Source: Candidatus Omnitrophota bacterium (GTDB lineage: Bacteria; Omnitrophota; Gorgyraeia; JAFGHF01). Taken from it: a DNA stretch of 64,000 nt. The translations under genes and the position numbers were made by a program. Positions within the stretch are counted from its first letter, which is position 1. Each line of letters starts with the position of its first letter. Location of the stretch: positions 1,300,575 to 1,364,574 of the forward strand of contig CP070837.1 of assembly GCA_020341815.1 (NCBI GenBank). Reading direction: 5' to 3'. A model generated the notes under the pieces. The model was not told where the DNA came from. It saw nothing but the letters and a program-made list of their open reading frames with translations, and searched no databases. Shown here piece by piece: positions 26,886 through 62,442 of this stretch.

Positions 26886-26941
26886 CAACCCTGATACCTT
26901 AGGATATAATAAGCTGGCTTATTAGTATATAAGGTAAAAAT

Positions 26942-42933: not shown

Positions 42934-42980
42934 GCCCCCCCGATGCTTTTTATAAAAAACAATCGGGGGGTTTTTATTTT
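42934..42980. terminator. Bidirectional intrinsic terminator between the convergent aldolase-like gene and lptG.
   Basis: A 9-bp GC stem (CCCCCCGAT…ATCGGGGGG) flanked by an A-run on one side and a T-run on the other. Confidence 0.65.
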
Positions 42981-45290: not shown

Positions 45291-45363
45291 CCCGCTCTTC
45301 CTTTCTTCCCAATACCACTTGCCTATCCCCAATCCTTCCGATGTTTAGGAAGGGCGGGGTTCA
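45287..45363 (-). repeat. MITE/REP-like element, copy F (between comF stop and lptF start).
   Basis: The TIRs are TCACCCCGCTCTTCC ... GGAAGGGCGGGGTTCA. Confidence 0.6.
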
Positions 45364-45368
45364 TTTTT

Positions 45369-46133: not shown

Positions 46134-46212
46134 TATACCATTTTATGCGTATCCTGTCAAGAAAATGTCTACTTGCAAAGAGGAGGGCTTTGTGGTAGGA
46201 TAACAACGAAAT

Positions 46213-46941
46213 ATGGGCGAAAAAATACGTTTACAGGTGGCCCTGGCGCAGTTGGGCTTTGCCTCGCGCAGAGCTGCCGCAGAGATTATAAAAAGCGGCA
46301 AGGTAAAGGTGGATGGCAAAATTATCCTTGAGCCGGGATACAGGGTCAGCTTAGAAAAAAACTCTATAATCGTCGAGGGCAGAAAGGCCTTATGTCCCAA
46401 AAAGGTCTATCTTTTACTCAATAAACCCAAAGGCGCGGTAAGCACAGTCAGGGATAGATATGCCCGGCGCACCGTGCTTGATTTACTGGGGAAAATAGAT
46501 ACGCGGGTTTATCCGGTGGGCCGCCTGGATAAGGATACGAGAGGGCTTTTGCTTTTGACTAACGACGGAGAACTCACCCACCGTCTGCTCCATCCCAAAT
46601 TCGGCATCAAAAAAGTTTATCGGGTTTCGGTGGAGGGTGAGATTCCTCGGCGCAAGATTGAAAAACTGGAAAAAGGCATTTATCTGGAAGGCAAAAAGAC
46701 CTTTCCCTGTAAAATCAGTATTCTTAATATAGTAAAGAAAACAACTTTATTGCGCGTTGAGCTCACCGAGGGGCGCAAGAGACAGATAAAGAAGATGTTT
46801 GCTTCTATGGGGCATCCGGTCTTGGATATAGAGAGGATAGCCTTCGGCCCTTTGAAGCTGGCTACCCTTAAGCCGGGGAAGTGGCGCCGCCTGAAAATGA
46901 ATGAAATTGCCAAGTTGAAAAGCTTAAGCGGGGTGATTTAG
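46213..46941 (+). CDS. rluB: rRNA pseudouridine synthase (RsuA/RluB family).
   Basis: S4 domain plus a catalytic 'GRLDKDTRGLLLLTNDGEL' block. Confidence 0.75.
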   Translation: MGEKIRLQVALAQLGFASRRAAAEIIKSGKVKVDGKIILEPGYRVSLEKNSIIVEGRKALCPKKVYLLLNKPKGAVSTVRDRYARRTVLDLLGKIDTRVYPVGRLDKDTRGLLLLTNDGELTHRLLHPKFGIKKVYRVSVEGEIPRRKIEKLEKGIYLEGKKTFPCKISILNIVKKTTLLRVELTEGRKRQIKKMFASMGHPVLDIERIAFGPLKLATLKPGKWRRLKMNEIAKLKSLSGVI

Positions 46942-46943
46942 TT

Positions 46944-48179
46944 TTGAGTCTATTCTGGCATATCCTGGGGCTGGTTATTTTACTTTTACTGTCCGGGCTT
47001 TTCTCAGGCACGGAGACCGCGCTTTTTTCCCTGTCCAAGATACAATTGCGCCGCTTGAAAGAGGCCTCACCTTTAAAGAGTGCCTTGATTGAGGAGCTCC
47101 TGGATTCTCCCCGCCGCACCTTAAACACTATCCTTACCGGCAATATGCTGGTGAATATCACTATCAGCGCCCTGATTACCGAGACCGTAATGTCTGTGAG
47201 CGGACAGAAAAAACTGGGTTTTTCCGTGGGGATAGCCACTTTTCTGCTCTTGGTATTCGGGGAGGTTACGCCTAAGACCTTTGCCATTTCGCATGCTGAG
47301 GGGTTAGCCTCTTTTGTTGCACGCCCTTTGCATATTTTTTCTAAGGTTATCTCGCCTGTTTGTCTTCTCTGGTCCAGGATTGCCGACTTTTTTTCTCAGC
47401 GTATAGTGGGCCCGCAGCACCTCAGGCAGCCGTTTCTCACCTCTGAGGAAATCCGGGGCCTGATTTCCATCGGAGAAAAAGGAGGTATAGTCAGCAGGGA
47501 AGAAGAGCAGATGATATACACGGTGTTTGATTTCGCGGAGAGGCATATCAATGAGATTATGACCCCGCGCGTGGACATCGTCAGCGTCGACGTGCAGCAG
47601 GATAGTTTTGGGCTTGAGAAGATACTCAAAGAAAGCCGTCATTCCAAAATCCCCGTATATAAAGACAGCGTGGATAATATCCTGGGGATTATCTATGCCA
47701 AGGAATATCTACTTTCGCCTTGTCGGGAGTGGCAGAACCTGATTAAGCCGGTCTTGTTTGCCCCGGAGACCAAAAAGATAGAAGAGCTTTTGCTTGAGTT
47801 TCAGGACAAAAAGTCCTATGTAGCTATAGTAAGCGACGAATACGGCGGGACCTCAGGCCTGATTACTATCGAGGATATCCTGGAAGAGATAGTGGGTGAG
47901 ATTCAGGACGAATACGATACCGAGGAGAAGCTTATCCTGAGAGTGGATGAAGAGACCGTCTCGGTCAGCGGAAAAACCAGCCTGTATGATTTAAACGAAG
48001 AACTGAAAACCCGTTTTAGGGCCAAAGAGATCCAGACCGTAGCCGGGTTTATAATTCATCTTTTCGGCAGAATCCCCAAGTCCGGGGAGAGCACCAGATA
48101 CAGGGATTATCTCTTTACGGTCGATGATGTGCGCAAGAACAGAATCCGTAAAGTTACGATAAGGAAAAAACAGAGATGA
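46944..48179 (+). CDS. CNNM/HlyC-CorC family transporter (DUF21 + CBS pair + CorC_HlyC).
   Basis: Four TM helices in DUF21, tandem CBS domains and a transporter-associated C-terminus. Confidence 0.7.
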   Translation: MSLFWHILGLVILLLLSGLFSGTETALFSLSKIQLRRLKEASPLKSALIEELLDSPRRTLNTILTGNMLVNITISALITETVMSVSGQKKLGFSVGIATFLLLVFGEVTPKTFAISHAEGLASFVARPLHIFSKVISPVCLLWSRIADFFSQRIVGPQHLRQPFLTSEEIRGLISIGEKGGIVSREEEQMIYTVFDFAERHINEIMTPRVDIVSVDVQQDSFGLEKILKESRHSKIPVYKDSVDNILGIIYAKEYLLSPCREWQNLIKPVLFAPETKKIEELLLEFQDKKSYVAIVSDEYGGTSGLITIEDILEEIVGEIQDEYDTEEKLILRVDEETVSVSGKTSLYDLNEELKTRFRAKEIQTVAGFIIHLFGRIPKSGESTRYRDYLFTVDDVRKNRIRKVTIRKKQR

Positions 48180-49144
48180 TTCTGGAAGTAATCTTATTCA
48201 TAGTATTTTTTGTTCTGCTTCAGGCCTTTTTCTCCGGCTCGGAGATGGCTGTCGTATCGGTTAATAGAATTAAAATGGAACAGCTGGCGCAAGCGAAGCT
48301 TTCCCAGGCGGTGCTTCTGAAGAAGATGCTCGCCTCACCCGACAAGCTCCTGAGCACGACTCTGGTGGGCACCAATCTTTCGGTGGTTACATCCTCGGCG
48401 GTGTTTACTACATTCATCGTGGCCTATTTTGGCCAGAGATATACCTGGCTTACCTCGGTAGTTATGACGCCGGTTATTTTGATTTTCGGCGAAGCAATCC
48501 CTAAGACCGTGTTCAGGCACTATGCCGATAAGATAACTTACAGGATAGTGGGTATTTTAAGGTTTTTCAGCGTTATTTTTTGGCCGTTGGTTATAGTTAT
48601 GGCTTTTATTTCGCGGATAATTTTATTCCCCTTCAAGACAAAGAAGGCAAAAAAGGTCAGTCCTTTCGTCAGCCGGGAAGAGTTGAAATTACTGATCAGG
48701 GAAATCAAAAAAGACGAGATAATCAAGCCGCATGAGCGCGCTATCATCCACAGAATATTTGAATTCGGCAGCAAAAAGGTCAAGGAGATTATGGTGCCGC
48801 TTAAGGATATAGTAAGCATGGAGGCCGGGGAGGGCGCCTTGCGCCTGAAGGAATTGTCCCGGGAAAAGGGATTTTCCCGTATCCTGGTTTATGAAGGCGA
48901 AAAAGATAACATCACCGGCTTTGCCAATGTGTTCGATGCCCTTTATGAAGAAGGCGCCTACAGCAGGGTGGGTGAGCGTCTGCGCCCGGTGTTACATATG
49001 TCTTCGGAAAGCCCCATTGATAAGGTATTTTACGCTTTGCAGTTAAAAAGGATGCAGGTTGCCGTCCTTGAGGATGAGAATAAGAAAAATATAGGCATGG
49101 TCACCTTTAAAGACCTGCTCGATGAGATTACGGGAGAGATGTAG
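48176..49144 (+). CDS. Second CNNM-type protein (DUF21 + CBS pair, no CorC C-terminus).
   Basis: A paralogous architecture; its start overlaps the upstream stop. Confidence 0.6.
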   Translation: MILEVILFIVFFVLLQAFFSGSEMAVVSVNRIKMEQLAQAKLSQAVLLKKMLASPDKLLSTTLVGTNLSVVTSSAVFTTFIVAYFGQRYTWLTSVVMTPVILIFGEAIPKTVFRHYADKITYRIVGILRFFSVIFWPLVIVMAFISRIILFPFKTKKAKKVSPFVSREELKLLIREIKKDEIIKPHERAIIHRIFEFGSKKVKEIMVPLKDIVSMEAGEGALRLKELSREKGFSRILVYEGEKDNITGFANVFDALYEEGAYSRVGERLRPVLHMSSESPIDKVFYALQLKRMQVAVLEDENKKNIGMVTFKDLLDEITGEM

Positions 49145-49884
49145 TGCTCATTAAATATATCTTTTTAGGGATTATTCAGGGACTGACGGAGTTTTTGCCG
49201 GTGAGCAGTTCCGCGCACCTGGTAATCTTTCAGGAGTTATTTGGGCTTTCGCAGGATAAGGTTGTCTTGAGCATCGCTTTACACCTGGGGAGCCTGGCGG
49301 CGCTGATTGTATTTTTATTTAAAGATATAAAGCGTTTTCTTAAACCCAGGATTGTCTCATCCATATTGCTGGCTACCTTTGTAACGGCAGTAATTGTTAT
49401 TTTGGGACAAGATTATTTTGAAAGCATGTTCTCATCGGGCCGGTTAATCTTACCGCTTATTGTCAGCGGGATAATTTTACTGAGCACAAAGAAGTTTGGC
49501 GGAGGCTTGCGGGGTGCGGATGATTTGAAGCTGGCGGACGGTTTCTGGCTGGGTCTTGTCCAGGGGCTTTCGGTAATCCCCGGGCTTTCCCGCTCGGGCG
49601 TTACGATTTCAACGCTTCTCTTTCGCGGTGTGGAAAGAGAAACCGCTTTTAAGTTTTCCTTTCTGGCTTCGATATTGGCTATTTTAGGGGCGCTTTTTTT
49701 CAAAGTAAAAGATTTTGCCTCGCCCGCTTGCTTTGATAGATATATGCTTTTTGGTTTTCTGGGGGCCTTCTTAAGCGGCCTTCTGGCCTTAAAGGTTCTG
49801 CTGGCAATTATTCGCCGGGCGCGCTTCTACCTGTTCGGCTATTACTGCCTGGCGCTGGCTCTAGTGTTATGGAGGTTATTATGA
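49144..49884 (+). CDS. uppP: Undecaprenyl-diphosphatase.
   Basis: 'GIIQGLTEFLPVSSSAHL' is the BacA/UppP signature. The GTG start overlaps the upstream stop. Confidence 0.75.
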   Translation: MLIKYIFLGIIQGLTEFLPVSSSAHLVIFQELFGLSQDKVVLSIALHLGSLAALIVFLFKDIKRFLKPRIVSSILLATFVTAVIVILGQDYFESMFSSGRLILPLIVSGIILLSTKKFGGGLRGADDLKLADGFWLGLVQGLSVIPGLSRSGVTISTLLFRGVERETAFKFSFLASILAILGALFFKVKDFASPACFDRYMLFGFLGAFLSGLLALKVLLAIIRRARFYLFGYYCLALALVLWRLL

Positions 49885-51230
49885 GGCACTTATCGATAAT
49901 GCTTCCCGAAATCAGGGAGCTGTTGAAATTGAATAAGAAGGAAGAGCTGAACGAGGCCCTGCGCGAGATGCACCCGGCCGATATAGCTGACGCCCTTTTC
50001 GATCTGCATATAAAAGAGCAGGTTGCCCTGATCAGCCGCATCGATAAGGAGCAGATGATTAAGGTCTTTGATGAGCTGGATGAAGAGGAGCAGTTTGAGC
50101 TTCTGGATAAATTGGAGAAAGAGCTCTCCGCCTATCTTTTGAACGAGATGTCTCCGGATGAAAGAGCCGACCTTTTAAGCAGTCTGCCGGATGAGGTGGT
50201 AAATAAATTTCTCAACCTGATGAGCGAGAACGAACGAAAAGATGTGGAGAAGCTGCTGAGGTATCCTGCCAACTCCGCCGGCAGTATTATGACTACGGAA
50301 TATATCTCGCTCACCCCTGAGCTTATGGTGTCTCAGGCCGCTGAGCTCATCAGGCAGGCCGCCCCCAAAAAAGAGACCATTTATTACACTTATGTTACCG
50401 ACCATGAGCACAGATTGGTGGGATTTGTTTCGCTTAAAGATATATTCATGGCCAGGGAAGATGTGCCTATCAAGAAGCTTATGCACCGCAGGGTATTTAA
50501 GGCCTTTGCCGAGCACGATCAGGAAGAGGTAGCCCAGACGGTGCGCAAATATAATCTGCTGGCCCTTCCGGTAATAGATAAGGATAAGAAGCTCGTGGGC
50601 ATAGTTACCGTCGATGATATCATGGATGTCTTGCGCCAGGAAAACACCGAAGACGTTTACAAGATGGCGGCTATGCTTGCGCCAAAGGAAGAATACTTCA
50701 ATACCGGATTTTTTACTCTCGTCAGGCGCAGGATAGTCTGGCTGGTAATCTTACTGATAGCTGTACAGTTTTCCGGGCAAATCCTCAAAAACTACGGCTT
50801 TGCCCTGGAGGCCGTCGTGGCCCTGGCCTTTTTTATTCCCCTGCTTCTTAATACAGCCGGTAATGCCGGGACCCAGTCCAGCACCACCATTATCCGCGGG
50901 CTGGCCACGGGTGAAATAACAATCAATCAGGTCTTAAAGGTTGTGCGTCGGGAGATAGGCTTAGGATTAGTCCTGGGAGGGGCTTTGGGTGTGCTGGGCG
51001 CAGGAAGGGCGCTGCTTTTGCAAGGCAACCCCTTTGTGAGCCTTGCCGTGGGTCTTGCGCTTGCGGCGACTATTGTGATGGCTACCCTGACCGGGGCTTT
51101 TCTGCCGCTTCTTCTAAAGAAACTCAAGATTGACCCGGCGGTGGCAGCCGGCCCTTTTATTTCTACGGTGGTGGATATAACCGCCTTGATAGTCTATTTT
51201 GAAATAGCCAAAGCATTGCTTCATCTGTGA
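49881..51230 (+). CDS. mgtE: Magnesium transporter MgtE.
   Basis: MgtE_N, CBS pair and five-TM channel domains. The start is ATG 49881 or 49869. Confidence 0.8.
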   Translation: MRHLSIMLPEIRELLKLNKKEELNEALREMHPADIADALFDLHIKEQVALISRIDKEQMIKVFDELDEEEQFELLDKLEKELSAYLLNEMSPDERADLLSSLPDEVVNKFLNLMSENERKDVEKLLRYPANSAGSIMTTEYISLTPELMVSQAAELIRQAAPKKETIYYTYVTDHEHRLVGFVSLKDIFMAREDVPIKKLMHRRVFKAFAEHDQEEVAQTVRKYNLLALPVIDKDKKLVGIVTVDDIMDVLRQENTEDVYKMAAMLAPKEEYFNTGFFTLVRRRIVWLVILLIAVQFSGQILKNYGFALEAVVALAFFIPLLLNTAGNAGTQSSTTIIRGLATGEITINQVLKVVRREIGLGLVLGGALGVLGAGRALLLQGNPFVSLAVGLALAATIVMATLTGAFLPLLLKKLKIDPAVAAGPFISTVVDITALIVYFEIAKALLHL

Positions 51231-51246
51231 TATGGAGGTATGAGGA

Positions 51247-52656
51247 ATGAGCGGGATTTTTGGAGTGGTCTCTGCTGAGGATTGCACCCAGACCCTTTTT
51301 TGCGGCACGGATTACCACTCGCATTTAGGGACCGAATATGCGGGGCTGGCTGTTCTGGGTGAGGACTTTTCCCGTCAGATACACAGCATAGGGCAAAGCC
51401 AGTTTAAATCGAAGTTTTATGAAGATTATAAAAAGATGCGGGGCAATAAAGGTATCGGCGTAATCAGCGCCTTTGATGAGCAGCCGATATATCTGCATTC
51501 GCGCTTTGGGCCCTTTTGCATCGTCACAAACGGTTTAGTTGAAAATGCCCAGGAACTGGTTAATGAGCTGTTAAACAAGGGTATATCTTTCAGTGAGGTA
51601 AGCAGGGATACGGTGAATATGCCCGAGTTAGTTGCCAAGCTAATCAATCAGGGCCAGACTCTGGTCGAGGGCATAGAGAAGATGTTCGAGGCGATTGAGG
51701 GCTCCTGCTCGCTTCTGTTGCTGAATAACGAGGGCATTTATGCGGCCAGGGATAAACTGGGTTACACCCCTCTTGTAGTAGGCAGGCGCGGGAATGATTG
51801 GGCGGTAACTACCGAGACCAGCGCCTTTCCCAATATCGATTTTGAAGTCGTAAAATATCTTCAGCCGGGCGAGATAGTTTTATTAAAGGAGGAAGGCCTG
51901 GCTGATAAAAAACCGGGCTCTGGCCTGGCCCAGGTCTGCACCTTTCTCTGGATATATACAGGATTTCCCGCCTCCAGTTACGAAGGGATAAACGTGGAGG
52001 TGGTCCGTGAGCGCTCGGGGCGCGCCTTAGCCAGGAAGGATAAGGATATAAATATAGATTTGGTCTCGGGCGTGCCTGATTCGGGTACGGGCCATGCCTT
52101 AGGTTATTCTGCTGAGTCAGGTAAGCCCTATCGGCGACCCCTGGTTAAATATACGCCCGGATACGGCCGCAGTTACACTCCGCCCTCGCAGGAGGCGCGC
52201 GATTTAATCGCCCGGATGAAGCTGATTCCGGTCAGGGAAATAATCGAGGGCAACAGGATTGTGGTTTGTGAGGATTCTATCGTCCGCGGCACGCAATTAA
52301 AGAACTTCACCGTTAAAAAATTATGGGAGGCCGCAGCGCGCGAAGTGCACGTGCGCCCGGCGTGTCCGCCTTTGATGTTTCCCTGCAGGTTTAATCTTTC
52401 CACCCGCAGTATCCGCGAGCTGGCTGCCCGCAGGGCTATCCATAGCCTGGAGGGGCATGAATTGGAAGATGTCTCAAAGTATCTCAATCATCACACCCAG
52501 GAATATAAGAGAATGGTGGAATGGATTGCCCGGGACTTAGAGGTGACTACGCTTAGATATCAAACCGTGGATGATATGGTTAAAGCCATAGGCCTGCCTA
52601 AAGAGAGGCTCTGCCTCTATTGCTGGAATGGGCAGTGCCCCCTGAAAGGGATATGA
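51247..52656 (+). CDS. Amidophosphoribosyltransferase-like protein (class II glutamine-amidotransferase/PRTase fold) with Ser in place of the N-terminal Cys.
   Basis: The N-terminus is 'MSGIFGV' where PurF has 'MCGIVGI'. The C-terminus carries a PRPP motif 'VVCEDSIVRGTQL'. Confidence 0.55.
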   Translation: MSGIFGVVSAEDCTQTLFCGTDYHSHLGTEYAGLAVLGEDFSRQIHSIGQSQFKSKFYEDYKKMRGNKGIGVISAFDEQPIYLHSRFGPFCIVTNGLVENAQELVNELLNKGISFSEVSRDTVNMPELVAKLINQGQTLVEGIEKMFEAIEGSCSLLLLNNEGIYAARDKLGYTPLVVGRRGNDWAVTTETSAFPNIDFEVVKYLQPGEIVLLKEEGLADKKPGSGLAQVCTFLWIYTGFPASSYEGINVEVVRERSGRALARKDKDINIDLVSGVPDSGTGHALGYSAESGKPYRRPLVKYTPGYGRSYTPPSQEARDLIARMKLIPVREIIEGNRIVVCEDSIVRGTQLKNFTVKKLWEAAAREVHVRPACPPLMFPCRFNLSTRSIRELAARRAIHSLEGHELEDVSKYLNHHTQEYKRMVEWIARDLEVTTLRYQTVDDMVKAIGLPKERLCLYCWNGQCPLKGI

Positions 52657-53366
52657 TGCTTCTATACGGAAAGAACTCTGTTCTTGAGCGGCTGAAGGTC
52701 AATCCCGCCAGCATAAAAAAGATATGCCTGCAGGATAATTTTTCTTCAGGCTCCATAGAGAAATTAATAAAGGAAAATAAGATTCCTCAGGAACGCCTCT
52801 CTGCCCGGAAATTAGCCAGAATAAAACCCGCCAAAGATTTGCAAGGCATAGTCGCTAGGATAGATAACTTTACATATATCCCCTTTGATGATTTGTTAAA
52901 AGAGGCGCGTCTTTCGCTTATATTTTTGGATAGAGTAAACGACCCCCATAACTTAGGGGTTATTATCCGCACCGCCGCCTGCTTCGGCGGCAATGCCGTG
53001 ATTATCCCTAAATATAAGGCCTGCGAGGTAAATGAGACGGTTCTGCATGTGGCCTCGGGAGGAGAGAATTATATTCCGGTGTCGCTCGTCTCCAATCTTT
53101 CCAATGCCTTAATCAAGGCCAAGAAGCGCGGATACTGGATTGCAGGCGCTGTTGTAAGTAATGAGGCCCAGGATATAAGTAAGGTTTCTCTGCCTTTTCC
53201 CCTGGCGCTTCTTTTGGGCTCAGAGGGTGAGGGTATTCGCAGGGGATTAGAAAAGCGCCTTGATATAAGCCTGAGTATTCCGATGAAGGGGGCGGGGCTT
53301 TCCTTTAACGTGGGTATGGCTTGTGCCATTTTCTGTTATGAGATATCCAGACAAAGACATACTTAA
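52653..53366 (+). CDS. rlmB: TrmH/SpoU-family RNA 2'-O-methyltransferase (RlmB-like).
   Basis: SpoU motifs ('DRVNDPHNLGVIIRTA', 'LLLGSEGEGI'). The ATG overlaps the upstream stop. Confidence 0.7.
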   Translation: MMLLYGKNSVLERLKVNPASIKKICLQDNFSSGSIEKLIKENKIPQERLSARKLARIKPAKDLQGIVARIDNFTYIPFDDLLKEARLSLIFLDRVNDPHNLGVIIRTAACFGGNAVIIPKYKACEVNETVLHVASGGENYIPVSLVSNLSNALIKAKKRGYWIAGAVVSNEAQDISKVSLPFPLALLLGSEGEGIRRGLEKRLDISLSIPMKGAGLSFNVGMACAIFCYEISRQRHT

Positions 53367-53922
53367 TTTTATTGCCGAGGCGGGCTTACTTAAGCGCCTG
53401 CGGCGTTCGGGTTGGTCGGTGATGGGAGTTAAAGACGCAGAGACCGTTGCCGAGCACAGCTTCAGGTGCGCGGTGATAGCCTATCTCCTTGCCCGCATGG
53501 AGGGCGTTTCGCCTTATAAGGTATTGCTGATGGCCCTGTTTAACGATATCCAGGAGGCGCGGATTACCGATTTACACAAGATGGCCCAGCGCTATATAGA
53601 GGCGCATGCAGCAGAGGACAAATCCTTTAACGAGCAAATCAGCTCTTTACCCAAGAATATAAAGAAAGAGTTGAAAGATATGTATAGGGAGTATAAAGCT
53701 CAACAGAGCAAAGAAAGCATTATCGCCAGGGATGCCGATATCCTGGAGTGCCTGATTCAGGCCAAGGAGTATTATGAATACGGCTATCCCGAGGCCACCA
53801 AGTTTATGAAAAAGGCCCCGCGCTTTCTCAAGACAAAAAGCGCCCGAAGCGTCTGGCGGCAGGGGAAAAATATGAGCCTTAACGAGTGGTGGTTTGAGTT
53901 AAGCGATTTTAAGCGCTTGTAG
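53323..53922 (+). CDS. HD-domain phosphohydrolase (YfbR-like 5'-nucleotidase family).
   Basis: HD motif context ('AEHSFR...', 'ITDL'). Confidence 0.5.
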   Translation: MPFSVMRYPDKDILNFIAEAGLLKRLRRSGWSVMGVKDAETVAEHSFRCAVIAYLLARMEGVSPYKVLLMALFNDIQEARITDLHKMAQRYIEAHAAEDKSFNEQISSLPKNIKKELKDMYREYKAQQSKESIIARDADILECLIQAKEYYEYGYPEATKFMKKAPRFLKTKSARSVWRQGKNMSLNEWWFELSDFKRL

Positions 53923-53957
53923 AGAATCATTGCGCTAAAAATTTTCAATAAATAGTC

Positions 53958-54116
53958 TTGCATAAATATGCAAGAGGGTATACAATATGCCCCTGTGGAG
54001 AAGGGCAGGCCTTTTGCCTGTCGCGGGTAGAACCGTGTTAAAACAAATAAAGATCTCAATGTCAGAATGGATCTTTCACCCATTATTGCCAATGGTGAAA
54101 GATCCTTTTGTTTTTA
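53958..54116 (+). promoter_or_regulatory. Sigma70-type promoter with a palindromic -35, followed by a leader carrying mutually exclusive antiterminator and intrinsic-terminator hairpins upstream of kamA.
   Basis: The -35 TTGCAT sits inside the palindrome TTGCATAAATATGCAA, then 17 bp, then the -10 TACAAT. The terminator is GGATCTTTCACC…GGTGAAAGATCC (54069-54105) with a T-run at 54106-54116. The alternative hairpin AAGATC (54050-55) / GATCTT (54070-75) overlaps the terminator's 5' arm. Confidence 0.5.
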
Positions 54117-54151
54117 TGAGGTAAACCTTTCATAAGGAGGGGAAAAGTGCC

Positions 54152-55276
54152 ATGGGCACAGAAGTAAAAGAATTGTTGTTAGAGAGGGATGAACCTCCAG
54201 GTAGTTTGAACTGGAACAGCTGGAGGTGGCAATTACGAAATGCCGTAAGAAATGCAGAGACATTAGAAAAAATAATTCCCTTGAACTCTGAACAAAAGCA
54301 GAGCTTAAGCAAGGTTATTGCCAAATATCCCCTGGCAATAACGCCTTATTATTTATCGCTCATTGATAGAAATAACCCGCAGGATGCCGTGAGGATGCAA
54401 TGCGTGCCTTCAGCTGAGGAAATGAAGCTGTATTTTGAAATGCACGACGACCCTCTCGGCGAGGAAGATGATTCCGTGCTCCCCGGGCTTATTCATCGCT
54501 ATCCCGACAGGGTGCTTTTGGTCCTGACTAATATGTGCCCTGTTTATTGCAGGCACTGCACCCGAAAAAGGCAGTGGTGTAAGGGTAATTGGATCAGCCG
54601 CCCCAAGGAGCTGGAGAATACATATCGCTATATCGAGATGCACACGGAGATTCGGGATGTTATTCTCTCAGGGGGCGACCCGCTTATCCTATCTACGGCG
54701 ATGCTGGAAGGGGTATTAAGCAGGCTCAGGCAAATCAGGCATGTTGAGATTGTCAGGATCGGCACGCGTTGTCCGGTTGTCCTTCCCCAGAGGATAGACG
54801 CAGAGTTGGTTGCCATGCTTAAGAAATACCGACCCCTGTGGGTAAATACGCATTTTAATCACCCCAATGAAATAACGAAGGAATCCGCCAGGGCGGCTGA
54901 TATGATGCTTTGCGCGGGGCTTGCGCTTAATAATCAGAGTGTGCTTCTAAAGGGGATAAATGACAGCGTAGAGATTATGACCAGGCTTTGCCAGAGGCTG
55001 CTTGGGATTGGAGTAAGGCCTTATTATCTTTTCCAGTGCGACCCCGTAAGCGGCACGGCCCATTTCAGGACTTCGGTGGAAAAGGGCATAGAGATTATAA
55101 GGGCCATGCGGGGATTTACCTCAGGCCTGTGCGTGCCTACTTTTGTAGTGGACGGACTCAAAGGTCAGGGAAAGGTGCCTCTTGCGCCCAATTACTTAGT
55201 CTCCAAAGAAGATAACTATATGCTGCTTGAGGGATATGAGGGGAAGCGGTTTAAGTATTACAATCCGGAGGATTAG
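54152..55276 (+). CDS. kamA: L-lysine 2,3-aminomutase (radical SAM, KamA/AblA-like).
   Basis: 'CPVYCRHCTRK' radical-SAM cluster motif and a KamA-like core; 374 aa. Confidence 0.7.
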   Translation: MGTEVKELLLERDEPPGSLNWNSWRWQLRNAVRNAETLEKIIPLNSEQKQSLSKVIAKYPLAITPYYLSLIDRNNPQDAVRMQCVPSAEEMKLYFEMHDDPLGEEDDSVLPGLIHRYPDRVLLVLTNMCPVYCRHCTRKRQWCKGNWISRPKELENTYRYIEMHTEIRDVILSGGDPLILSTAMLEGVLSRLRQIRHVEIVRIGTRCPVVLPQRIDAELVAMLKKYRPLWVNTHFNHPNEITKESARAADMMLCAGLALNNQSVLLKGINDSVEIMTRLCQRLLGIGVRPYYLFQCDPVSGTAHFRTSVEKGIEIIRAMRGFTSGLCVPTFVVDGLKGQGKVPLAPNYLVSKEDNYMLLEGYEGKRFKYYNPED

Positions 55277-56317
55277 GTGAAGATAGGCATAACTTACAAC
55301 CTGAAAGACGACTTATCCCCCGATGCCATCGTTAACGATGAGTTTGCCGAGGAGTTCGATAGCGCCGCAACTATTGACGCCATATGCGGAGTTTTGCAGC
55401 AGGAAGGCTATGACAGCGTAAAGTTGGGCGGGACACTTGATATCGTCGGCAGAATAAATAAAGAAAATATAGATTTCGTATTTAATATCGCAGAAGGCGC
55501 ATGCGGCAGAAACCGCGAATCGCACGTCCCTTCACTTTTAGAGATGTGTGATATGCCTTATTCCGGCTCCGACCCTCTGACGCTGGGGCTTACGCTGGAT
55601 AAGATTATGACCAAGAAGATTGCCTATTATGCGGGCATTCCCACGCCCAATTATAAGGTAATATGGCAATCGGAAGACCTGAAAACAATAGAAAATGTCT
55701 TGAGGTATCCCCTGATAACAAAACCGGCCTGGGAGGGCTCCAGCAAAGGGATATATAATTCATCCAAAGTATCCGATGGGGATAATTTGAAGAAGAACGT
55801 AAAGCTGCTTCGAGAGAAGTATCCGCATCAGCCGATACTGGTTGAGGAATACATCGAGGGCAAGGAAATCACCGTCGGCGTAATAGGCAATAACCCTGCG
55901 CAAATCTTAGGGGTTATGGAGATTGTAAATAAACATTTGCCGGGTGAGGATTTGCTTTATTCGCTTGAGGTGAAGAAAGACTGGAGGAACTTAGTTGATT
56001 ATCTGGTGCCGGCGAATGTAGGTAAATTAGAGGACAGACATATAAGGCATTATGCGCTTTCGGCCTTCCGGGAGTTTGGCTGCCGGGATATCGCAAGAGT
56101 AGATTTTAAGCTTTCCCGAAGCCAAAACAAGATATTTCTGCTGGAGATAAATCCGCTTCCGGGTTTATCGCCCGAATATGCCGACCTTGTGATAATGAGC
56201 CGAAAGGCGGGAATAGAATACAGGGACCTGGTTCTGTCTATTCTGTATCAGGGGTTTTCACGTTATGAATCTTTGGGGAAAATGGTAAAAATTTCAAGGG
56301 TGGGTCTTAAACTATGA
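55277..56317 (+). CDS. D-alanine-D-alanine ligase-family ATP-grasp enzyme.
   Basis: An N-terminal Ddl-like 'FNIAEGACGRNRES…LEMCDMPYSGS' block and a C-terminal ATP-grasp fold. Confidence 0.55.
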   Translation: MKIGITYNLKDDLSPDAIVNDEFAEEFDSAATIDAICGVLQQEGYDSVKLGGTLDIVGRINKENIDFVFNIAEGACGRNRESHVPSLLEMCDMPYSGSDPLTLGLTLDKIMTKKIAYYAGIPTPNYKVIWQSEDLKTIENVLRYPLITKPAWEGSSKGIYNSSKVSDGDNLKKNVKLLREKYPHQPILVEEYIEGKEITVGVIGNNPAQILGVMEIVNKHLPGEDLLYSLEVKKDWRNLVDYLVPANVGKLEDRHIRHYALSAFREFGCRDIARVDFKLSRSQNKIFLLEINPLPGLSPEYADLVIMSRKAGIEYRDLVLSILYQGFSRYESLGKMVKISRVGLKL

Positions 56318-57303
56318 AGCAATATGATTTTGCCTTAGCCTGGAACAGCGGAAGCAAGGAAAAGTTTGTTACGTGGACACGGAAGGAATGCACCGTCAGG
56401 GGGATGAAATTCCATCTGATAACCGAAAAGAACGTGGAAGGGACAATTGAGGACCTCGAGAAGAATAAATTGAAGATAAAGTTTCTTCTGGATAATGAGT
56501 CCGATTACGAGGATAAGAGAAATTTATTTGCCCGGCTCTGTTATGCGGTCAAGGATAACGGGGGTACTGTGGTCTGCGACCCGGACGATGCCCGCCAGGC
56601 GGCAAATAAGGCGATTACGCACTATGATTTGGTGAAGGCGAAGCTTCCCGTTCCCTATACGGTTGTTGTGCGTAACTGGGAGCCGGATGATTTTAAATTG
56701 ACCAAGGATGAGCTGAAGTCATTAGGCGCGCCCTTTATAATAAAACCGGCCTCAGGGTTTGGTCAGCAGGGCGTGCTTAAAAATGCCAACGGCTCTATTA
56801 CAGAGATAGCCCAGGCAAGGCATTTCAGCAGGGGCGATGATTTTCTCCTGCAGGAAAAGGTTAATCCGCTTATCCTGGGGGATAGGCAGGCCTGGTTCAG
56901 GACGTATTTTCTGTTTGGCGAGATTATCCCCTGCTGGTGGGATACCGAAAGCGGCCGCTACGCCCACGTTACCCTGCGCCAGATGTATAATTATAAGCTG
57001 CTTCCGCTTGCCCGGATTATTTCCGAGATAGCACGGATAACCAATATGGATTTCTTCTCATCGGAGATTGCCATTACCGGCAAAGAAAAAAAGAAGCATT
57101 TCATGGCCATAGACTATGTAAACGACCAGCCCGAGCTCTGCGTGCGTTCTCAAAAGGGCGGGGAAGGGCCGGTATCCGAGATAGTGCAGCATATTTCCGA
57201 AAAAATAGTAGAGACGGCCTGGCGCATCTCCAGAGGCGTATATACCGGAATGCACCGTTCGATATGGCTTGCAAAGGCAACGCATGAGGATGAGAGCATC
57301 TAG
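56314..57303 (+). CDS. Second ATP-grasp-family ligase (RimK-like core).
   Basis: 'FIIKPASGFGQQGV' ATP-grasp glycine-rich loop. The start overlaps the upstream stop. Confidence 0.45.
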   Translation: MKQYDFALAWNSGSKEKFVTWTRKECTVRGMKFHLITEKNVEGTIEDLEKNKLKIKFLLDNESDYEDKRNLFARLCYAVKDNGGTVVCDPDDARQAANKAITHYDLVKAKLPVPYTVVVRNWEPDDFKLTKDELKSLGAPFIIKPASGFGQQGVLKNANGSITEIAQARHFSRGDDFLLQEKVNPLILGDRQAWFRTYFLFGEIIPCWWDTESGRYAHVTLRQMYNYKLLPLARIISEIARITNMDFFSSEIAITGKEKKKHFMAIDYVNDQPELCVRSQKGGEGPVSEIVQHISEKIVETAWRISRGVYTGMHRSIWLAKATHEDESI

Positions 57304-57320
57304 GCCCATGAGCAGGAGAG

Positions 57321-57740
57321 ATGAGGTTTCCCAGAAGCACCCGCAAATTCGACGAAATCTTCAAAAAGGCGCATTGCCCCGCTCCCTCAGAGCTTAAGGG
57401 CGAATACTTCGTCGATATGCTCAGTGCCCTTCCCACCTTAAGAGGCTTTTTCCACCGCAAGGTTTTTATCCCCGAAGGAGACGGAGTTTCAGGTTACAAT
57501 CTGCTTTTTGCCGACAAAAAGTGGGGCGCTTTTTTTCTGGAGAAAGGGATTTGTAATGAGCTGGGCTCGATAGAGGCAATGGTAATAAATTACGATAGAG
57601 AAGAAAATTCCTTTCTCACCAATAAAATCAGGGATTATATAAGATGTATCGAGCCGGGAAGGTTATACATCGGCCGCTTCAATTACCTTTTTATGGGAAA
57701 ATTGCGCTTTCTGGGATATTTTAGTTTGAGCAAGGCATAG
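57321..57740 (+). CDS. Hypothetical protein, last gene of the kamA/ATP-grasp cluster.
   Basis: 139-aa ORF with no recognisable motifs. Confidence 0.25.
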
Positions 57741-57754
57741 AAAAGGGGGCCTCT

Positions 57755-58798
57755 ATGTATAAGATAATTTTACTGGGATTGCTTATGGCATTTATAGCCC
57801 AACGAAGTTCTTTTGCCGATGAGAAAAAGGCCACTTTTGCCGGAGGGTGCTTCTGGTGCATGGAGCCGCCTTTTGAAGCCTTAAAAGGCGTAAGCGAAGT
57901 TACCTCAGGCTATATGGGCGGCACCAGGAAAAATCCCACATATGAAGAGGTTTCATCAGGCAAGACAGGGCACAGAGAGGTGGTTCAGGTTACTTATGAT
58001 GCCTCTAAAATAAGCTATACAGAGCTTCTGGATGTTTTTTGGAAGCAGATAGACCCGACTGATGCAAGCGGGCAATTCGCCGATCGCGGCTCACAATACA
58101 AAACCGCCATATTTTACCACGACCAGCAGCAGAGGCGCCTGGCGGAGGAGTCCAAAAGCAAACTCGAAGAGTCGGGAAAGTTTGAAAAACCAATCGTCAC
58201 CGAAATCCTAAAGGCCTCTACATTTTATCCGGCCGAAGAGTATCACCAGGACTATTATAAGAAATGCCCCTTCAAATACGATAGTTATAAAAAGGGCTCC
58301 GGCAGGGATGAGTTCATTAAGGAAAAATGGAGCGGTAAAGCCCCCGGTAATCCTAATGAGTATCGCAAGCCATCCGAGGCAGAGATCAAGGAAAAGCTTA
58401 CGCCTTTGGAATATCAGGTTACCCAGCAATGCGGCACAGAGCCGCCGTTTAACAATAAATACTGGGACAATAAAAAAGAAGGTATTTATGTAGATATTGT
58501 TTCCGGTGAGCCGCTGTTCAGCTCTCTGGATAAATTCGATTCCGGAACCGGCTGGCCCAGCTTTACCAGGCCGCTTGAGGCGGACAATGTCGTGAGGAAA
58601 GAAGACAGAAGGTTCTTCGGTATGCGCACCGAGGTAAGAAGCAAAGACGCCGATTCCCACCTGGGCCATGTATTTGATGACGGGCCCGAACCTACGGGCC
58701 TGCGTTACTGCATAAACTCCGCGGCCTTACGTTTTATACCGAAAGAGGATCTGGAAAAGGAAGGCTACGGGGAATATAAAAAGCTTTTTGAGAAATAG
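57755..58798 (+). CDS. msrAB: Bifunctional peptide methionine sulfoxide reductase MsrA-MsrB with an N-terminal signal/anchor.
   Basis: MsrA 'GGCFWCME' motif, MsrB 'RYCINSAAL' motif and a hydrophobic N-terminus. Confidence 0.8.
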
Positions 58799-58810
58799 CA
58801 GGAGGAAGTT

Positions 58811-60052
58811 ATGTCCGCAAAATTGAAGGTCAGGCAATTCGCTGCCGGCAGCTGCTATTCTTACATTTTGAATTGTCAATCCGAGGCGTTTATTATCGAT
58901 CCGCATATAAGCCTGCCGGAGGAATATATCGGCTATCTCGATAAGCACGGATTAACGCTTAAATATATAGTGGATACGCATACCCATGCGGACCATTTTT
59001 CTCTGGCGGCGATATTGAAGGAAAGATTCAAGGCGCCCGTATTGATGCACGAGAGGGCTATGTCCGAGGTGGCCGATAGACGCCTTAAAGAAGGCGATGA
59101 AATCTCTATCGGCCCAAAGCATTTTAAGATTTTGTATGCGCCCGGGCACACGGATGACACCATAAATATTTACGGAGAAGGCATGATTTTTACCGCCGAT
59201 GTGCTTTTGATAGGCAGCGTGGGGCGCACCGACTTCCAGAACGGCTCGCCGGAATCGATGTTCGATACCCTGGAGAAATTAAGGGCCCTTCCCGATGAGA
59301 CGATAGTATTTCCCGTGCACGACTATAACGGCAGGAAATCCTCTACTATCGGCAGGGAAAAGGCGCGCAACCCCTTTATGCGCGAAAGAAATAAAGAGGC
59401 CTTTGTGCGTAATGCCCGCTCAAAAAAGCTACCCAAACCCTTCAATATCGATAACATCATCAGGGTAAATCAGAAAGGGCAGGCCAGGACTCTGGAGATG
59501 GTTTCTCCCAAAGAAGCTCAAGAGGTTATTTTGCGGGATGAGCAGGTTAAGCTGCTGGATGTGCGTTCTCCTCTGGAGTTTCATGAGGTCCACATCAAGG
59601 ATTCGCTTAATGTGCCCATAGATACCATAGGCCTTAAACTGAAAGACCTGAGTGAGTCCGGAAAGAGTTATATAGTGCTCTGCCGCACCGGAAACCGCTC
59701 ACCCATGGCCGCAGATATGCTATTGCAATCCGGTCTTCATACGGTAAAAGTTATGCAAGGGGGCATGACGCGCTGGCAGAAGGAAAGGCTCCCCGTTATA
59801 AAGGGAGAAGGTGGCGTGTCTCTGGAGCGGCAGGTCAGATTTACTGCAGGCGCTGTAGTGCTTTTTGGCATAATAATGAGCTGGTTTGTAAACAGGGCCT
59901 TTATCTGGATTCCCATAGGCGTCTCCTGCGGGCTTATCTTTTCCGGATTGAGCGACAATTGCCTTCTGAGCGCGTTGTTGATGAGGCTCCCCTACAATAA
60001 AAAATTATATAAGACCAAAACAGGGGGCGGCACCTGCTCCATCAGTCAGTAA
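58811..60052 (+). CDS. Metallo-beta-lactamase-fold (persulfide-dioxygenase-like) - rhodanese - DUF2892 (YgaP-like membrane tail) fusion protein.
   Basis: 'HTHADHF' MBL motif, rhodanese active site 'CRTGNRS' and a C-terminal two-TM tail. Confidence 0.6.
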   Translation: MSAKLKVRQFAAGSCYSYILNCQSEAFIIDPHISLPEEYIGYLDKHGLTLKYIVDTHTHADHFSLAAILKERFKAPVLMHERAMSEVADRRLKEGDEISIGPKHFKILYAPGHTDDTINIYGEGMIFTADVLLIGSVGRTDFQNGSPESMFDTLEKLRALPDETIVFPVHDYNGRKSSTIGREKARNPFMRERNKEAFVRNARSKKLPKPFNIDNIIRVNQKGQARTLEMVSPKEAQEVILRDEQVKLLDVRSPLEFHEVHIKDSLNVPIDTIGLKLKDLSESGKSYIVLCRTGNRSPMAADMLLQSGLHTVKVMQGGMTRWQKERLPVIKGEGGVSLERQVRFTAGAVVLFGIIMSWFVNRAFIWIPIGVSCGLIFSGLSDNCLLSALLMRLPYNKKLYKTKTGGGTCSISQ

Positions 60053-60086
60053 AAAAGTTTTTATTTAACCGGGGAGGGCTGAAGGA

Positions 60087-60716
60087 ATGAAAAAACTATT
60101 GCATATTATAGCTACCTGCCGGGGCAAGGAATCAAGGACCTTAAAGGTAAGCGATGCCTTTATTAAGGCCTTTAAGCTGAAGCATCCGGAGTGTAATATC
60201 GATGAGCTTAACTTGTTTGATGCAAAGCTGCCCGAGCTCACCGTAAAAAAATTGGACGGAAAGTATGTGCTTTTGGGCGGGGGTGAGCTTGCGGGAGAAT
60301 TAAAAGAGGCCTGGAAGGATATAGAGGCCCATATAGAGCGCTTCCTTGCGGCCGATATTTACTTAATCAGCACCCCGATGTGGAATTTCAACATCCCCTA
60401 TATCCTGAAGCATTATATTGATATAATAGTCCAGCCCAAATATCTTTTCCGATACACCCAAAAGGGCCCCGAGGGCCTGGCGAAGAATAAAAAGATGATT
60501 GTTATTACCAGCCGCGGCGGTGATTACAGCGAAAATAGCCCATTTCACGCCTATGACCTCCAGGAGCCTTATCTGCGCACCATATTCGGCTTTACGGGGA
60601 TTACCGATATCACCTTTGTTATTGCCCAGCCCATGGATGCACTTGGCCCTGAGGTAGCCGCTCAAAAGATTAAAGAGGCCGAAGGGCGCGCCGTAAAAGT
60701 AGCTCAAGAGATATGA
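60087..60716 (+). CDS. azoR: FMN-dependent NADH-azoreductase / flavodoxin-like quinone reductase.
   Basis: 'STPMWNFNIPYILKHYIDII' is the AzoR signature. Confidence 0.7.
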   Translation: MKKLLHIIATCRGKESRTLKVSDAFIKAFKLKHPECNIDELNLFDAKLPELTVKKLDGKYVLLGGGELAGELKEAWKDIEAHIERFLAADIYLISTPMWNFNIPYILKHYIDIIVQPKYLFRYTQKGPEGLAKNKKMIVITSRGGDYSENSPFHAYDLQEPYLRTIFGFTGITDITFVIAQPMDALGPEVAAQKIKEAEGRAVKVAQEI

Positions 60717-60728
60717 AGGAGGCGAGTT

Positions 60729-61001
60729 ATGAGCTCTAAAAAAAGCTTCACTGCCGAGGAAGCCAAAAAGATCGGAGAAAAGCTGGGGATAAAGTGGGAT
60801 AAGTTTGATGTGGAGCAATTCAGGCGGGGGATGGATGTGGAATTGGAGCACGGTTTGCATGATGTCTTAACAAATGTTACGGGAGATGACGCCTTAATCA
60901 CAGGTAAGATTGCCCTGGCCCATCTTAATGAGTTTCCCGATTATTATACCCGGCTTGATAAGATGGAAAAGGAAGCCGAGGAGTTCTGGGAAGGAAAATA
61001 A
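60729..61001 (+). CDS. Small hypothetical protein.
   Basis: 90-aa charged protein; no family recognised. Confidence 0.3.
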   Translation: MSSKKSFTAEEAKKIGEKLGIKWDKFDVEQFRRGMDVELEHGLHDVLTNVTGDDALITGKIALAHLNEFPDYYTRLDKMEKEAEEFWEGK

Positions 61002-61018
61002 AGAAAAGGAGCTAAGCC

Positions 61019-61504
61019 ATGACCAGAAAGAAAAAGGGTCAGTTTCCGGCAAAATGGGATCCCTTTATGAATGAGATGGCCTCGTTTAAGAAATCCATTG
61101 ACCAGGCCTTTGACAGTTTCTTCAAGCATCCCTTATTGGCTAAGATGCCTTCGGTATTCAAGGGCGCCTTTGGCGTCTGGAGGCCTGCGATCGATGTCTA
61201 TGAGACCGAAAGAGAAGTGGTGGTAAAGGCAAGCGTGCCCGGTTGCGACAAAAAGGCCATAAAGGTCGATGTAAAGAACAATCTGCTTACCATCACAGGC
61301 CAGAGAAAAGAAGAAAAAGAGATTAAAAAGAAAAACTTCTACCATAAAGAGCAGACTATGGGCGCTTTCCAGAGAAGCATAACCCTGCCCCAGAACATCA
61401 ATCCCGAGAAAGCCAAGGCCACATGCGAAAACGGAGTGCTCAAGATTGTCTTTCCCCGGACCAAGTCCCCCGGGGGAAAGGGAAAAAACATAGAAATCGA
61501 GTAA
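61019..61504 (+). CDS. Hsp20/alpha-crystallin small heat-shock protein.
   Basis: Alpha-crystallin domain ('WRPAIDVYETEREVVVKASVPG…TCENGVLKIVFP'). Confidence 0.8.
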   Translation: MTRKKKGQFPAKWDPFMNEMASFKKSIDQAFDSFFKHPLLAKMPSVFKGAFGVWRPAIDVYETEREVVVKASVPGCDKKAIKVDVKNNLLTITGQRKEEKEIKKKNFYHKEQTMGAFQRSITLPQNINPEKAKATCENGVLKIVFPRTKSPGGKGKNIEIE

Positions 61505-61522
61505 AATTCCAAAGGAGCGCAT

Positions 61523-62428
61523 ATGGGAGAAAAAAGGCCCTTAAATCCGGTTGAGGAATTAAGAAGAGATAAATTAGAGAAGCTAAAGAAGTGTTTTTCA
61601 GAGCTTGAAGGCTATAAGCGGAATAAGCTTACTTTACAGTATCCTGTCTTTTTCGTTCCCGGCTGGACATGCGAAGATTGCGCCGCATGGAAAAAGCCTT
61701 ATGAAAAAATTCCCAAAAAATACAAGGAATATTATAAACCCGCAAAATACTGGATAGATGAGATTATCGAGAATAAAGAGCAGGCTCATTTTATCGAATT
61801 TACGGATCAGGAAAGCAAGGATTCTCCGAGTTTCATGAAATTGGGAGAATATCTTAAGAAAAAATTAATAGCTATAACTCAAGAAAGGCCTATTAACCTG
61901 GTTGGACACAGTATGGGCGGTTTGGACATAAGGTCTGCTATTTCGGATGTTAAAGAGCCGGCTTTAAACACAAGGAATGTTATAACGGTAGGCACTCCCA
62001 ATAACGGAACTCTTGAGGCCGGACTGCTTAACTGGAAGTTTGTTCAAGATATGGTAAAAAAGTTTAAAAAAATGAAGGATTATCACATAATTCAGGGATG
62101 CAATCTCTATAGAGGAAGCAATCCCATAAGAGAGATTAACGAGCCTAAAGAGCGTCTTAATTTGCTGGAAAAAATTGACAAATTCTATGTTTTTATGGGT
62201 TTAAGAGACAGCACGGTCAAAAGCAGCCCCAAGCTGAAAAAAGACGGCATTTCGGAAGATTTATACGAAGAAAAGGTAAAAATAATTCAGACAGCCAGCG
62301 CCGAACATTCGGGCAAGGACGGAATAACCCAGGATCCGAGACTTTTTCTTCCTATAATTAAGATTTTGTGCGGCATCGAGCTAAAGGACGATTTCAATCA
62401 CGGGTATATTTACAGAAAAGAGACTTAA
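61523..62428 (+). CDS. Alpha/beta-hydrolase lipase/esterase-like protein.
   Basis: Nucleophile elbow 'GHSMGG' with an 'FFVPGW' N-terminal block. Confidence 0.45.
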   Translation: MGEKRPLNPVEELRRDKLEKLKKCFSELEGYKRNKLTLQYPVFFVPGWTCEDCAAWKKPYEKIPKKYKEYYKPAKYWIDEIIENKEQAHFIEFTDQESKDSPSFMKLGEYLKKKLIAITQERPINLVGHSMGGLDIRSAISDVKEPALNTRNVITVGTPNNGTLEAGLLNWKFVQDMVKKFKKMKDYHIIQGCNLYRGSNPIREINEPKERLNLLEKIDKFYVFMGLRDSTVKSSPKLKKDGISEDLYEEKVKIIQTASAEHSGKDGITQDPRLFLPIIKILCGIELKDDFNHGYIYRKET

Positions 62429-62442
62429 AGAAGGTTTTGAAT

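Follow-up and report, generated by a model that had tools for sequence, protein, structure and literature searches.

A candidate attenuator leader with a palindromic -35 region in front of a KamA-family gene cluster of an Omnitrophota bacterium

How is a gene cluster expressed when a strong intrinsic terminator directly precedes its first ribosome-binding site? This question is raised by a locus of a Candidatus Omnitrophota MAG, which we analysed within a stretch of 64 kb (GCA_020341815.1, CP070837.1:1,300,575-1,364,574, forward strand), hereafter called the window; all positions are those of the window unless a locus is named. A plus-strand gene array (46213-62994) has here its only large gap, 229 nt long (53923-54151), between an HD-hydrolase gene and a KamA-family gene. 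The initial annotation of this DNA had read most of the gap as a promoter and leader upstream of kamA, and possibly as a novel ligand- or protein-responsive attenuator. The genes that border the gap are the following.

Upstream of the gap, plus strand: two CNNM/CorC-type transporters, a BacA-type undecaprenyl-diphosphatase, MgtE, a glutamine amidotransferase, a SpoU methylase and the HD hydrolase
54134-54154, plus strand: ribosome-binding site AAGGAGG (54134-54140) and start codon (ATG 54152) of the KamA-family gene, read from the sequence
54152-60716, plus strand: the whole tightly packed array behind the leader, seven genes
54152-55276, plus strand: KamA-family radical SAM protein
55277-56317, plus strand: Ddl-like (D-Ala-D-Ala-ligase-like) ATP-grasp protein
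56314-57303, plus strand: second, weak ATP-grasp protein
57321-57740, plus strand: 139-aa protein of unknown function
57755-58798, plus strand: MsrA-MsrB
58811-60052, plus strand: MBL-rhodanese protein
60087-60716, plus strand: flavodoxin-like reductase

From the spacing alone, we infer that the seven genes (54152-60716) are co-transcribed. The first of them encodes a protein with a 100% match in NCBI, on a contig of 1.55 Mb, and its N-terminus is consistent with the homolog consensus, which supports the start at ATG 54152. The label kamA is approximate: the protein does belong to the KamA family of radical SAM enzymes, but it does not reach the NCBIfam cut-offs for lysine, glutamate or arginine 2,3-aminomutase. 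At the positions that correspond to D293 and D330 of the Clostridium LAM (structure 2A5H), the two Asp residues that bind the lysine epsilon-amino group, it has retained Asp, and the retention of both makes a lysine-type substrate likely. The KamA-family gene and the two ATP-grasp genes (54152-57303) form a conserved cluster in Omnitrophota, to which an S66 LD-carboxypeptidase-like gene is added in some genomes. This composition suggests the synthesis of a peptide or solute containing a beta-amino acid, and the product of a pathway with a KamA-like aminomutase and two ATP-grasp ligases probably contains beta-lysine. Among the 20 neighbouring genes scanned (44202-62994), none encodes a regulator, and none of their 20 proteins carries an ANTAR domain.

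Within the gap, the order of elements given by the initial annotation was confirmed: a promoter-like site with a palindrome, then a leader, a strong terminator and the ribosome-binding site. The DNA-level elements and the terminator are as follows.

53937-53957, plus strand: A/T-rich, UP-element-like region directly 5' of the -35 hexamer, 15/21 identical to the promoter-upstream region of a related locus, L089
53958-53986, plus strand: candidate promoter of the sigma-70 type, TTGCAT (53958-53963), 17 nt, TACAAT (53981-53986), read from the sequence, with a predicted transcription start near 53993
53956-53975, strand-neutral: inverted repeat TCTTGCATA-AA-TATGCAAGA (arms of 9 bp, centre of 2 nt), candidate operator at which a dimeric regulator would bind
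54069-54115, plus strand: intrinsic terminator with a 12 + 3 bp stem, a 6-nt loop and the U-tract TTTTGTTTTT, from folding and sequence

The promoter had been called near-consensus. Its hexamers and 17-nt spacer are indeed present, but the term is overstated, since TTGCAT matches TTGACA at only 3/6 positions; TACAAT matches its consensus at 5/6, giving a total of 8/12 at optimal spacing. With these hexamers, the site falls below the threshold of an automated promoter scan, which makes no call there. Matches of equal quality number 35 in the window, both strands included, and occur in 8% of shuffled copies of the intergenic region (P ~0.08). The location of the candidate in the only large gap of a long plus-strand array is supporting context, and further evidence comes from L089, the closest syntenic relative among the loci examined: the 21 nt upstream of the TTGACA hexamer of L089 are identical to 53937-53957 at 15/21 positions, in exact register with the TTG. 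When 220 AT-rich, TTG-anchored 21-mers from the window were used as controls, the best reached 12 and none reached 13 or more. The region 53937-53957 is probably orthologous to the promoter-upstream region of L089, and the in-register similarity suggests that the ancestral promoter of the cluster was retained in the window. Inspection of the sequence in and after the terminator found neither a sigma-54-like GG/GC spacing nor a promoter-like hexamer pair. A TTGCCA at 54086, inside the terminator, was considered as a -35 and rejected, because no -10 lies at 16-19 nt from it. Elsewhere in the window, a TTGACA-17-TATAAT promoter (26882-26910) that matches the consensus at 12/12 positions lies just 5' of a gene starting at 26942, indicating that the organism uses canonical sigma-70 promoters.

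The inverted repeat spans the -35 hexamer and the first 12 nt of the spacer; its arms are perfect and it measures 20 bp in total. The earlier description as a perfect 16-bp palindrome has to be corrected to 9+2+9, because the central AA is not self-complementary. The whole window has only four palindromes of this kind, and a shuffled intergenic region rarely yields one (P = 0.005). There is no second copy in the window, nor a copy with a 2-nt spacer in the 91 loci searched for it. The TGCATA-A-TATGCA found upstream of the kamA homolog of L058 (3744-3756) was discarded as a second copy: its centre is 1 nt and the resemblance is probably a coincidence. Most likely, 53956-53975 is the operator of a dimeric repressor, and it would then provide a second, independent control point. 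A separate perfect palindrome, GCATTATCGCT-AA-AGCGATAATGC (18966-18989), was observed in a divergent promoter region of the window, between a minus-strand gene ending at 18672 and a plus-strand gene starting at 19302, with promoter-like sites at 19239 (minus strand) and 19247 (plus strand) flanking it.

The canonical intrinsic terminator, claimed with a 12-bp stem and a U-run, proved to be present and strong. Its stem pairs 54069-54080 with 54094-54105 (12 bp), followed by a 1-nt bulge and 3 further pairs, and 9 of the 10 nt after the stem are U (TTTTGTTTTT, 54106-54115). The hairpin is worth -18.3 kcal/mol and counts among the approximately four best terminators of the window; for the segment 54060-54118 the folding energy is -22.2 kcal/mol (z = -5.8), a value matched by 0/200 shuffles. 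The element thus has the stable stem-loop and immediate U-tract on the transcribed strand that identify an intrinsic (Rho-independent) terminator, and it is directed to the plus strand only, no T-run following the hairpin on the minus strand. An automated terminator scan misses 54069-54115, presumably because the bulge splits the stem. The end of the terminator lies 18 nt before the ribosome-binding site and 36 nt before ATG 54152, not 35 nt before the ribosome-binding site as first annotated. Since only 18 nt separate the U-tract from the ribosome-binding site and no hexamer pair is found in or after the terminator, transcripts of the operon must cross the terminator, whatever promoter they start from. 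This forced read-through, together with the order of the elements, makes "attenuator candidate, class unknown" a fair description of the locus.

Two further observations concern terminators. An A-tract, AAAACAAA (54040-54047), lies 21 nt 5' of the terminator stem and can pair without mismatch with 54107-54114 of the U-tract; it looks like the A-tract that a bidirectional terminator would have, moved away from the stem by a 21-nt segment that carries the antiterminator strand described below. At 42936-42970, between convergent genes, the window also holds an intrinsic terminator of the bidirectional type, CCCCCCGATGC...GATCGGGGGG, each strand having its own T-run.

If transcription starts at 53993, the leader is ~123 nt long. 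Its predicted parts, and an open frame that overlaps it, are listed here.

53993-54048, plus strand: 5' part of the leader, from RNAfold predictions
54004-54022, plus strand: hairpin 1, 7 bp, loop CUUUU (RNAfold)
54023-54036, plus strand: hairpin 2, GCGG-GUAGAA-CCGU (RNAfold)
54037-54048, plus strand: A-rich linker
53998-54001 with 54054-54057 and 53993-53995 with 54063-54065, plus strand: weak enclosing helix, GAGA/UCUC and CUG/CAG (RNAfold)
54049-54076, plus strand: candidate antiterminator hairpin, AAAGAUCU with GGAUCUUU, then AU-GUCAGA-AU (RNAfold)
53987-54124, plus strand: 45-codon open frame MPLWRRAGLLPVAGRTVLKQIKISMSEWIFHPLLPMVKDPFVFMR spanning leader and terminator, with GAGG 9 nt 5' of its ATG

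The upstream portion of the leader (53993-54068) folds barely better than its shuffles (z = -1.9, 7/200 as good). The alternative hairpin that had been proposed to compete with the terminator (AAGATC...GATCTT) can indeed be drawn, and its pairing extends to 7 nt (AAAGATC, 54049-54055, with GATCTTT, 54070-54076), the 3' strand being the start of the 5' arm of the terminator. It is weak, however, with predicted energies of -3.9 to -5.3 kcal/mol, the -3.9 standing against -20.5 kcal/mol for the terminator. The complement lies 14 nt 5' of the terminator 5' arm, and when the 46 nt upstream are shuffled, 4% of the copies contain a 7-nt complement to this arm, a marginal value (P ~0.04). In folds of truncated leaders, the antiterminator hairpin forms before the 3' arm of the terminator is transcribed. 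Given this difference in stability, termination is the expected default.

Could the leader belong to a described family of regulatory RNAs? Rfam 15, searched at gathering score over the whole window, returned 0 matches, and a search of 53880-54200 at E up to 10 returned only chance-level sRNA matches (4227 families); no known family was thus assigned to the leader. The Rfam models also bear out the stated absence of canonical T-box and L-box signatures: neither the T-box (RF00230) nor the lysine riboswitch or L-box (RF00168) gave a match in the window at gathering score or in 53880-54200 at E up to 10. A leader of ~123 nt is moreover too short for a T-box Stem I and antiterminator. The weak resemblance to the T-box sequence that had been pointed out does exist as a 13-mer, GGGTAGAACCGTG, but it mismatches at 3 positions, and matches of this kind show no excess over chance (5 seen, 8.3 expected). 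Likewise, the c-di-AMP riboswitch model (RF00379) has no match in the window, and the same model finds the example of L058 at 106 bits. The ANTAR substrate motif consists of a pair of consecutive hairpins, each with a stem of 3 bp or more and a 6-nt loop, joined by a linker of ~5-12 nt; the second hairpin overlaps a terminator, and each loop begins with A and has G as its fourth residue (PMC3369931). The RNAfold predictions reproduce this layout, with 54023-54036 and 54049-54076 as hairpins, 6-nt loops and a 12-nt linker, and the predicted second hairpin shares 54069-54076 with the terminator. The two loops, GUAGAA and GUCAGA, have G at position 1 in both cases, and at position 4 G in the first and A in the second. 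The fit to an ANTAR substrate is thus superficial, the defining A1/G4 loop residues being absent.

Homologous loci were collected by alignment-based scans of genome and metagenome contig collections and by 11 exact-protein look-ups, and 176 loci were compared. The matches listed from both collection scans were mostly Dehalococcoidia LAM loci with a handful of Omnitrophota, and the nearest KamA homologs found were 62-72% identical. No leader-like sequence was found in the 176 loci by blastn-short or nhmmer, or in the upstream regions of the fetched loci by local alignment with shuffle controls; a covariance model of the single leader, run against the 176 loci, found only the leader itself, and the pattern GCCTGNCGCGGGTAGAACCGTG had 0 matches in the metagenome contig collection. 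A covariance-model match in L124 (30 bits) was dismissed as it aligns only to the terminator hairpin. In L172, a Logan assembly of the same population, the sequence is identical over all 4125 bases compared, leader included, and thus adds no variation. The lack of a conserved leader upstream of kamA homologs had been named beforehand as what would refute the proposal, and it is what we found in every homolog examined. With no similar leader found, no helix has covariation support. Hence, of the proposed novel ligand- or protein-responsive attenuator, the attenuator anatomy stands, but the present evidence gives no positive support to a new class of ligand-binding riboswitch, because conservation upstream of kamA homologs is lacking, the antiterminator is weak and the fold reaches only z = -1.9.

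The relatives of the HD protein (best 80% identical, next 76%) are followed by different downstream genes. More precisely, the SpoU-HD pair is conserved in Omnitrophota and the next gene varies (L173, L174, L175-L177), encoding a B12-binding radical SAM protein, OmpW, or desulfoferrodoxin with rubrerythrin, so that the site of the leader is a variable junction. None of 12 related loci has a terminator directly before kamA, and the only strong terminator among them lies ~250 nt upstream of kamA, in L081. L089 has no intrinsic terminator after the HD gene or before kamA, which indicates that the terminator in the window is not a conserved end of the upstream operon.

In most Omnitrophota relatives, the region before the conserved cluster of KamA and two ATP-grasp genes differs from that of the window and contains an ArsR-type repressor module with small peptide genes (L089:1949-2880, L090:953-2272, L086:245-1187, L082:3092-3831, L085:3399-3968, L091:82-228 and L001, ~160 nt upstream of 4001). 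The fullest module comprises four genes, whose products are an ArsR-type regulator, an acidic secreted protein (~115-141 aa), a basic peptide of 47 aa (MKRKRQLAQGVRKYIRRQKMIIKRM...) and a Cys-rich peptide (35-56 aa); the four genes are not all present in every locus, and L081 has none. The order in L089 is SpoU, HD, promoter, arsR-type gene, small genes and kamA. The Cys-rich peptide follows the pattern MCC-x2-CP-x-Y-x2-C ... CC-x2-CP-x-Y-x2-C, only 15 codons of it being left in L089; it has no Pfam match, and a role in the pathway as a metallothionein-like or RiPP-like partner is conceivable. Promoters of the form TTGACA-17-TATATG precede the module in L086 (150-200), L089 (1864-1910) and L090 (880-925), and in these three loci a 22-bp palindrome, TATATGnnnAT/ATnnnCATATA, begins at the -10; it is likely an ArsR-type operator. 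The homologous cluster therefore has a TTGACA promoter and an operator of its own in these relatives, which supports the reading of the window that we favour below. No homolog of the ArsR, 130-aa, 47-aa or Cys-rich peptide genes was found in the window, and its intergenic region contains neither the TATATG-N10-CATATA operator nor a remnant of it.

An evolutionary scenario may thus be suggested for this junction: the promoter seems to have been retained from the ancestor, the ArsR module and its operator to have been lost, and the new -35 palindrome and the terminator-containing leader to have been gained. A stronger version, in which the ancestral ArsR and small-peptide module was replaced by a new cis-acting RNA switch, belonging to a riboswitch or protein-dependent antiterminator class not described before and coupled to a new operator, we hold to be quite improbable; if true, it would represent a rewiring from a protein repressor to RNA-based attenuation.

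All together, the reading that we favour, tentatively and at a little short of an even chance, is a lineage-specific attenuator with termination as the default and an operator over the -35. A sigma-70 promoter of moderate quality would have its -35 within the 20-bp inverted repeat, and a dimeric repressor bound to this repeat would block the binding of RNA polymerase. Transcripts starting at ~53993 would carry the ~123-nt leader, in which the terminator would form by default, keeping the operon off or low. Expression would then require read-through, most likely obtained when a trans-acting factor stabilises the weak hairpin 54049-54076, or else when the polymerase is otherwise modified. An RNA-binding protein is a more likely read-through factor than a small molecule, given how small and weakly structured the putative aptamer is and that no second example was found. 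Against this reading stand the lack of conservation, the weak and statistically marginal antiterminator, the barely structured 5' domain, a promoter that by its 8/12 matches could be due to chance, and the absence of a regulator gene among the 20 neighbours scanned. The analysis shows the sequence elements, their order and how strong the terminator is; we infer that the promoter is used, where transcription starts, that read-through is regulated and what kind of effector acts.

Several other explanations compete with a lineage-specific attenuator. The terminator could simply be constitutive and close the operon that lies upstream (Mg2+ transporters, GATase, SpoU, HD), the promoter being fortuitous and kamA being expressed, without any sensing, by leakage or from an unrecognised type of promoter. 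The terminator is indeed the first one after the long plus-strand array, the leader is unconserved, the junction after SpoU-HD is variable (L173, L174, L175), and a promoter match as good arises in 8% of shuffles. However, 147 nt separate the HD stop codon from the terminator, and this interval contains a promoter-like site and a rare palindrome; the in-register similarity to L089 argues that the promoter is real; L089 lacks a terminator after HD; and, there being no room for a promoter after the terminator, a seven-gene array would rely on leakage through a strong terminator. We consider an operon boundary of this kind unlikely, although it has to be taken seriously. The same promoter, short structured transcript and strong terminator are also the anatomy of an sRNA gene, and the ~123-nt RNA might act independently in trans while the kamA operon receives read-through only. 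An sRNA would leave unexplained that the ribosome-binding site of a seven-gene array without a promoter of its own follows after 18 nt in the same orientation, which is the anatomy of a leader, and it has neither an Rfam match nor conservation on its side; it appears very improbable.

Two alternatives attribute the read-through to other signals. In a new metabolite riboswitch of the OFF type, a ligand would stabilise the helix 53993-54001/54054-54065 around hairpins 1 and 2, sequester the UCUC of the antiterminator and let the terminator form. The nesting is correct, as the 3' strand of this P1 helix overlaps the 5' strand of the antiterminator, whose 3' strand overlaps the 5' arm of the terminator; no known family claims the leader, and a kamA homolog sits behind a c-di-AMP riboswitch in L058. 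Against this, the putative aptamer has ~70 nt, helices of 4-7 bp and z = -1.9, alternative pairings of such a kind are easily found in any sequence, and a single occurrence with no homolog offers no covariation, whereas riboswitch classes are usually widespread. A riboswitch is therefore improbable in our view. In a translation-coupled attenuation like that of pyrBI, the 45-codon frame (53987-54124) would be translated on transcripts derived from upstream and the trailing ribosome would melt the terminator, so that read-through would report translation or polymerase pausing. The frame runs through leader and terminator without a stop, closes 27 nt 5' of the kamA ATG and has GAGG at 9 nt from its own ATG. 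Only 1 nt separates the -10 hexamer from this ATG, which a transcript of the proposed promoter would therefore lack, and the frame is incompatible with the promoter supported by L089. Open frames of 45 codons arise by chance in roughly 10% of cases; this one is not conserved and shows no informative codon bias, and relatives carry unrelated small ORFs at the equivalent place. We regard this explanation as the most improbable one.

The leader is thus a single-genome orphan of ordinary architecture, a regulatory arrangement of a well-known kind. We found no paper that ties kamA to a dedicated leader, and a full-text literature search for "Omnitrophota" with "riboswitch" returned only an unrelated work (a preprint and its PNAS version). 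If the conditional terminator is real, it would be among the first cis-regulatory RNAs proposed for Omnitrophota and would mark the control signal of a conserved, uncharacterised pathway with a KamA-like enzyme and two ATP-grasp proteins. We see it chiefly as a caution and as something to look for in metatranscriptomes, rather than as a new RNA class.

Among known systems, the E. coli pyrBI operon has a 44-codon leader frame that spans its attenuator. The window is alike in having a frame of ~45 codons that runs through the terminator and stops just before the structural gene, but here the start codon lies 5' of the predicted transcription start. The lysine riboswitch (RF00168) upstream of lysC shares with the arrangement proposed for our locus the order of a promoter, a structured leader, mutually exclusive antiterminator and terminator, a ribosome-binding site and a lysine-related downstream gene; unlike it, the leader described here has no Rfam match, and its putative aptamer is small, weakly structured and unconserved. 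The targets of ANTAR proteins (EutV, NasR, AmiR; PMC3369931) resemble the predicted fold by two hexaloop hairpins, a 12-nt linker, the overlap of the second hairpin with the terminator and default termination, and differ in that the A1/G4 loop residues are missing here and the second stem is bulged.

Closer to the gene itself, Desulforadius tongensis (L058) carries a c-di-AMP riboswitch (ydaO, RF00379) at 3443-3574, with 106 bits and a 132-nt aptamer, and our reading of its sequence places a terminator-like hairpin ~375 nt upstream of the kamA homolog. As proposed for the window, a KamA-family gene is preceded by a cis-regulatory RNA and a terminator-like hairpin, which indicates that KamA-family genes can be under leader control; the RNA is a different one, KamA is longer (424 aa) and the gene context is not the same. 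Last, the control of the ArsR/SmtB type (L086, L089, L090) resembles the arrangement proposed for our locus in that the cluster lies behind its own promoter with a palindromic operator, and in L089 the 21 nt upstream are alike. In these relatives, however, the 22-bp operator lies at the -10 and an arsR-type gene follows, whereas in the window another palindrome covers the -35 and a terminator-containing leader takes the place of the regulator gene.
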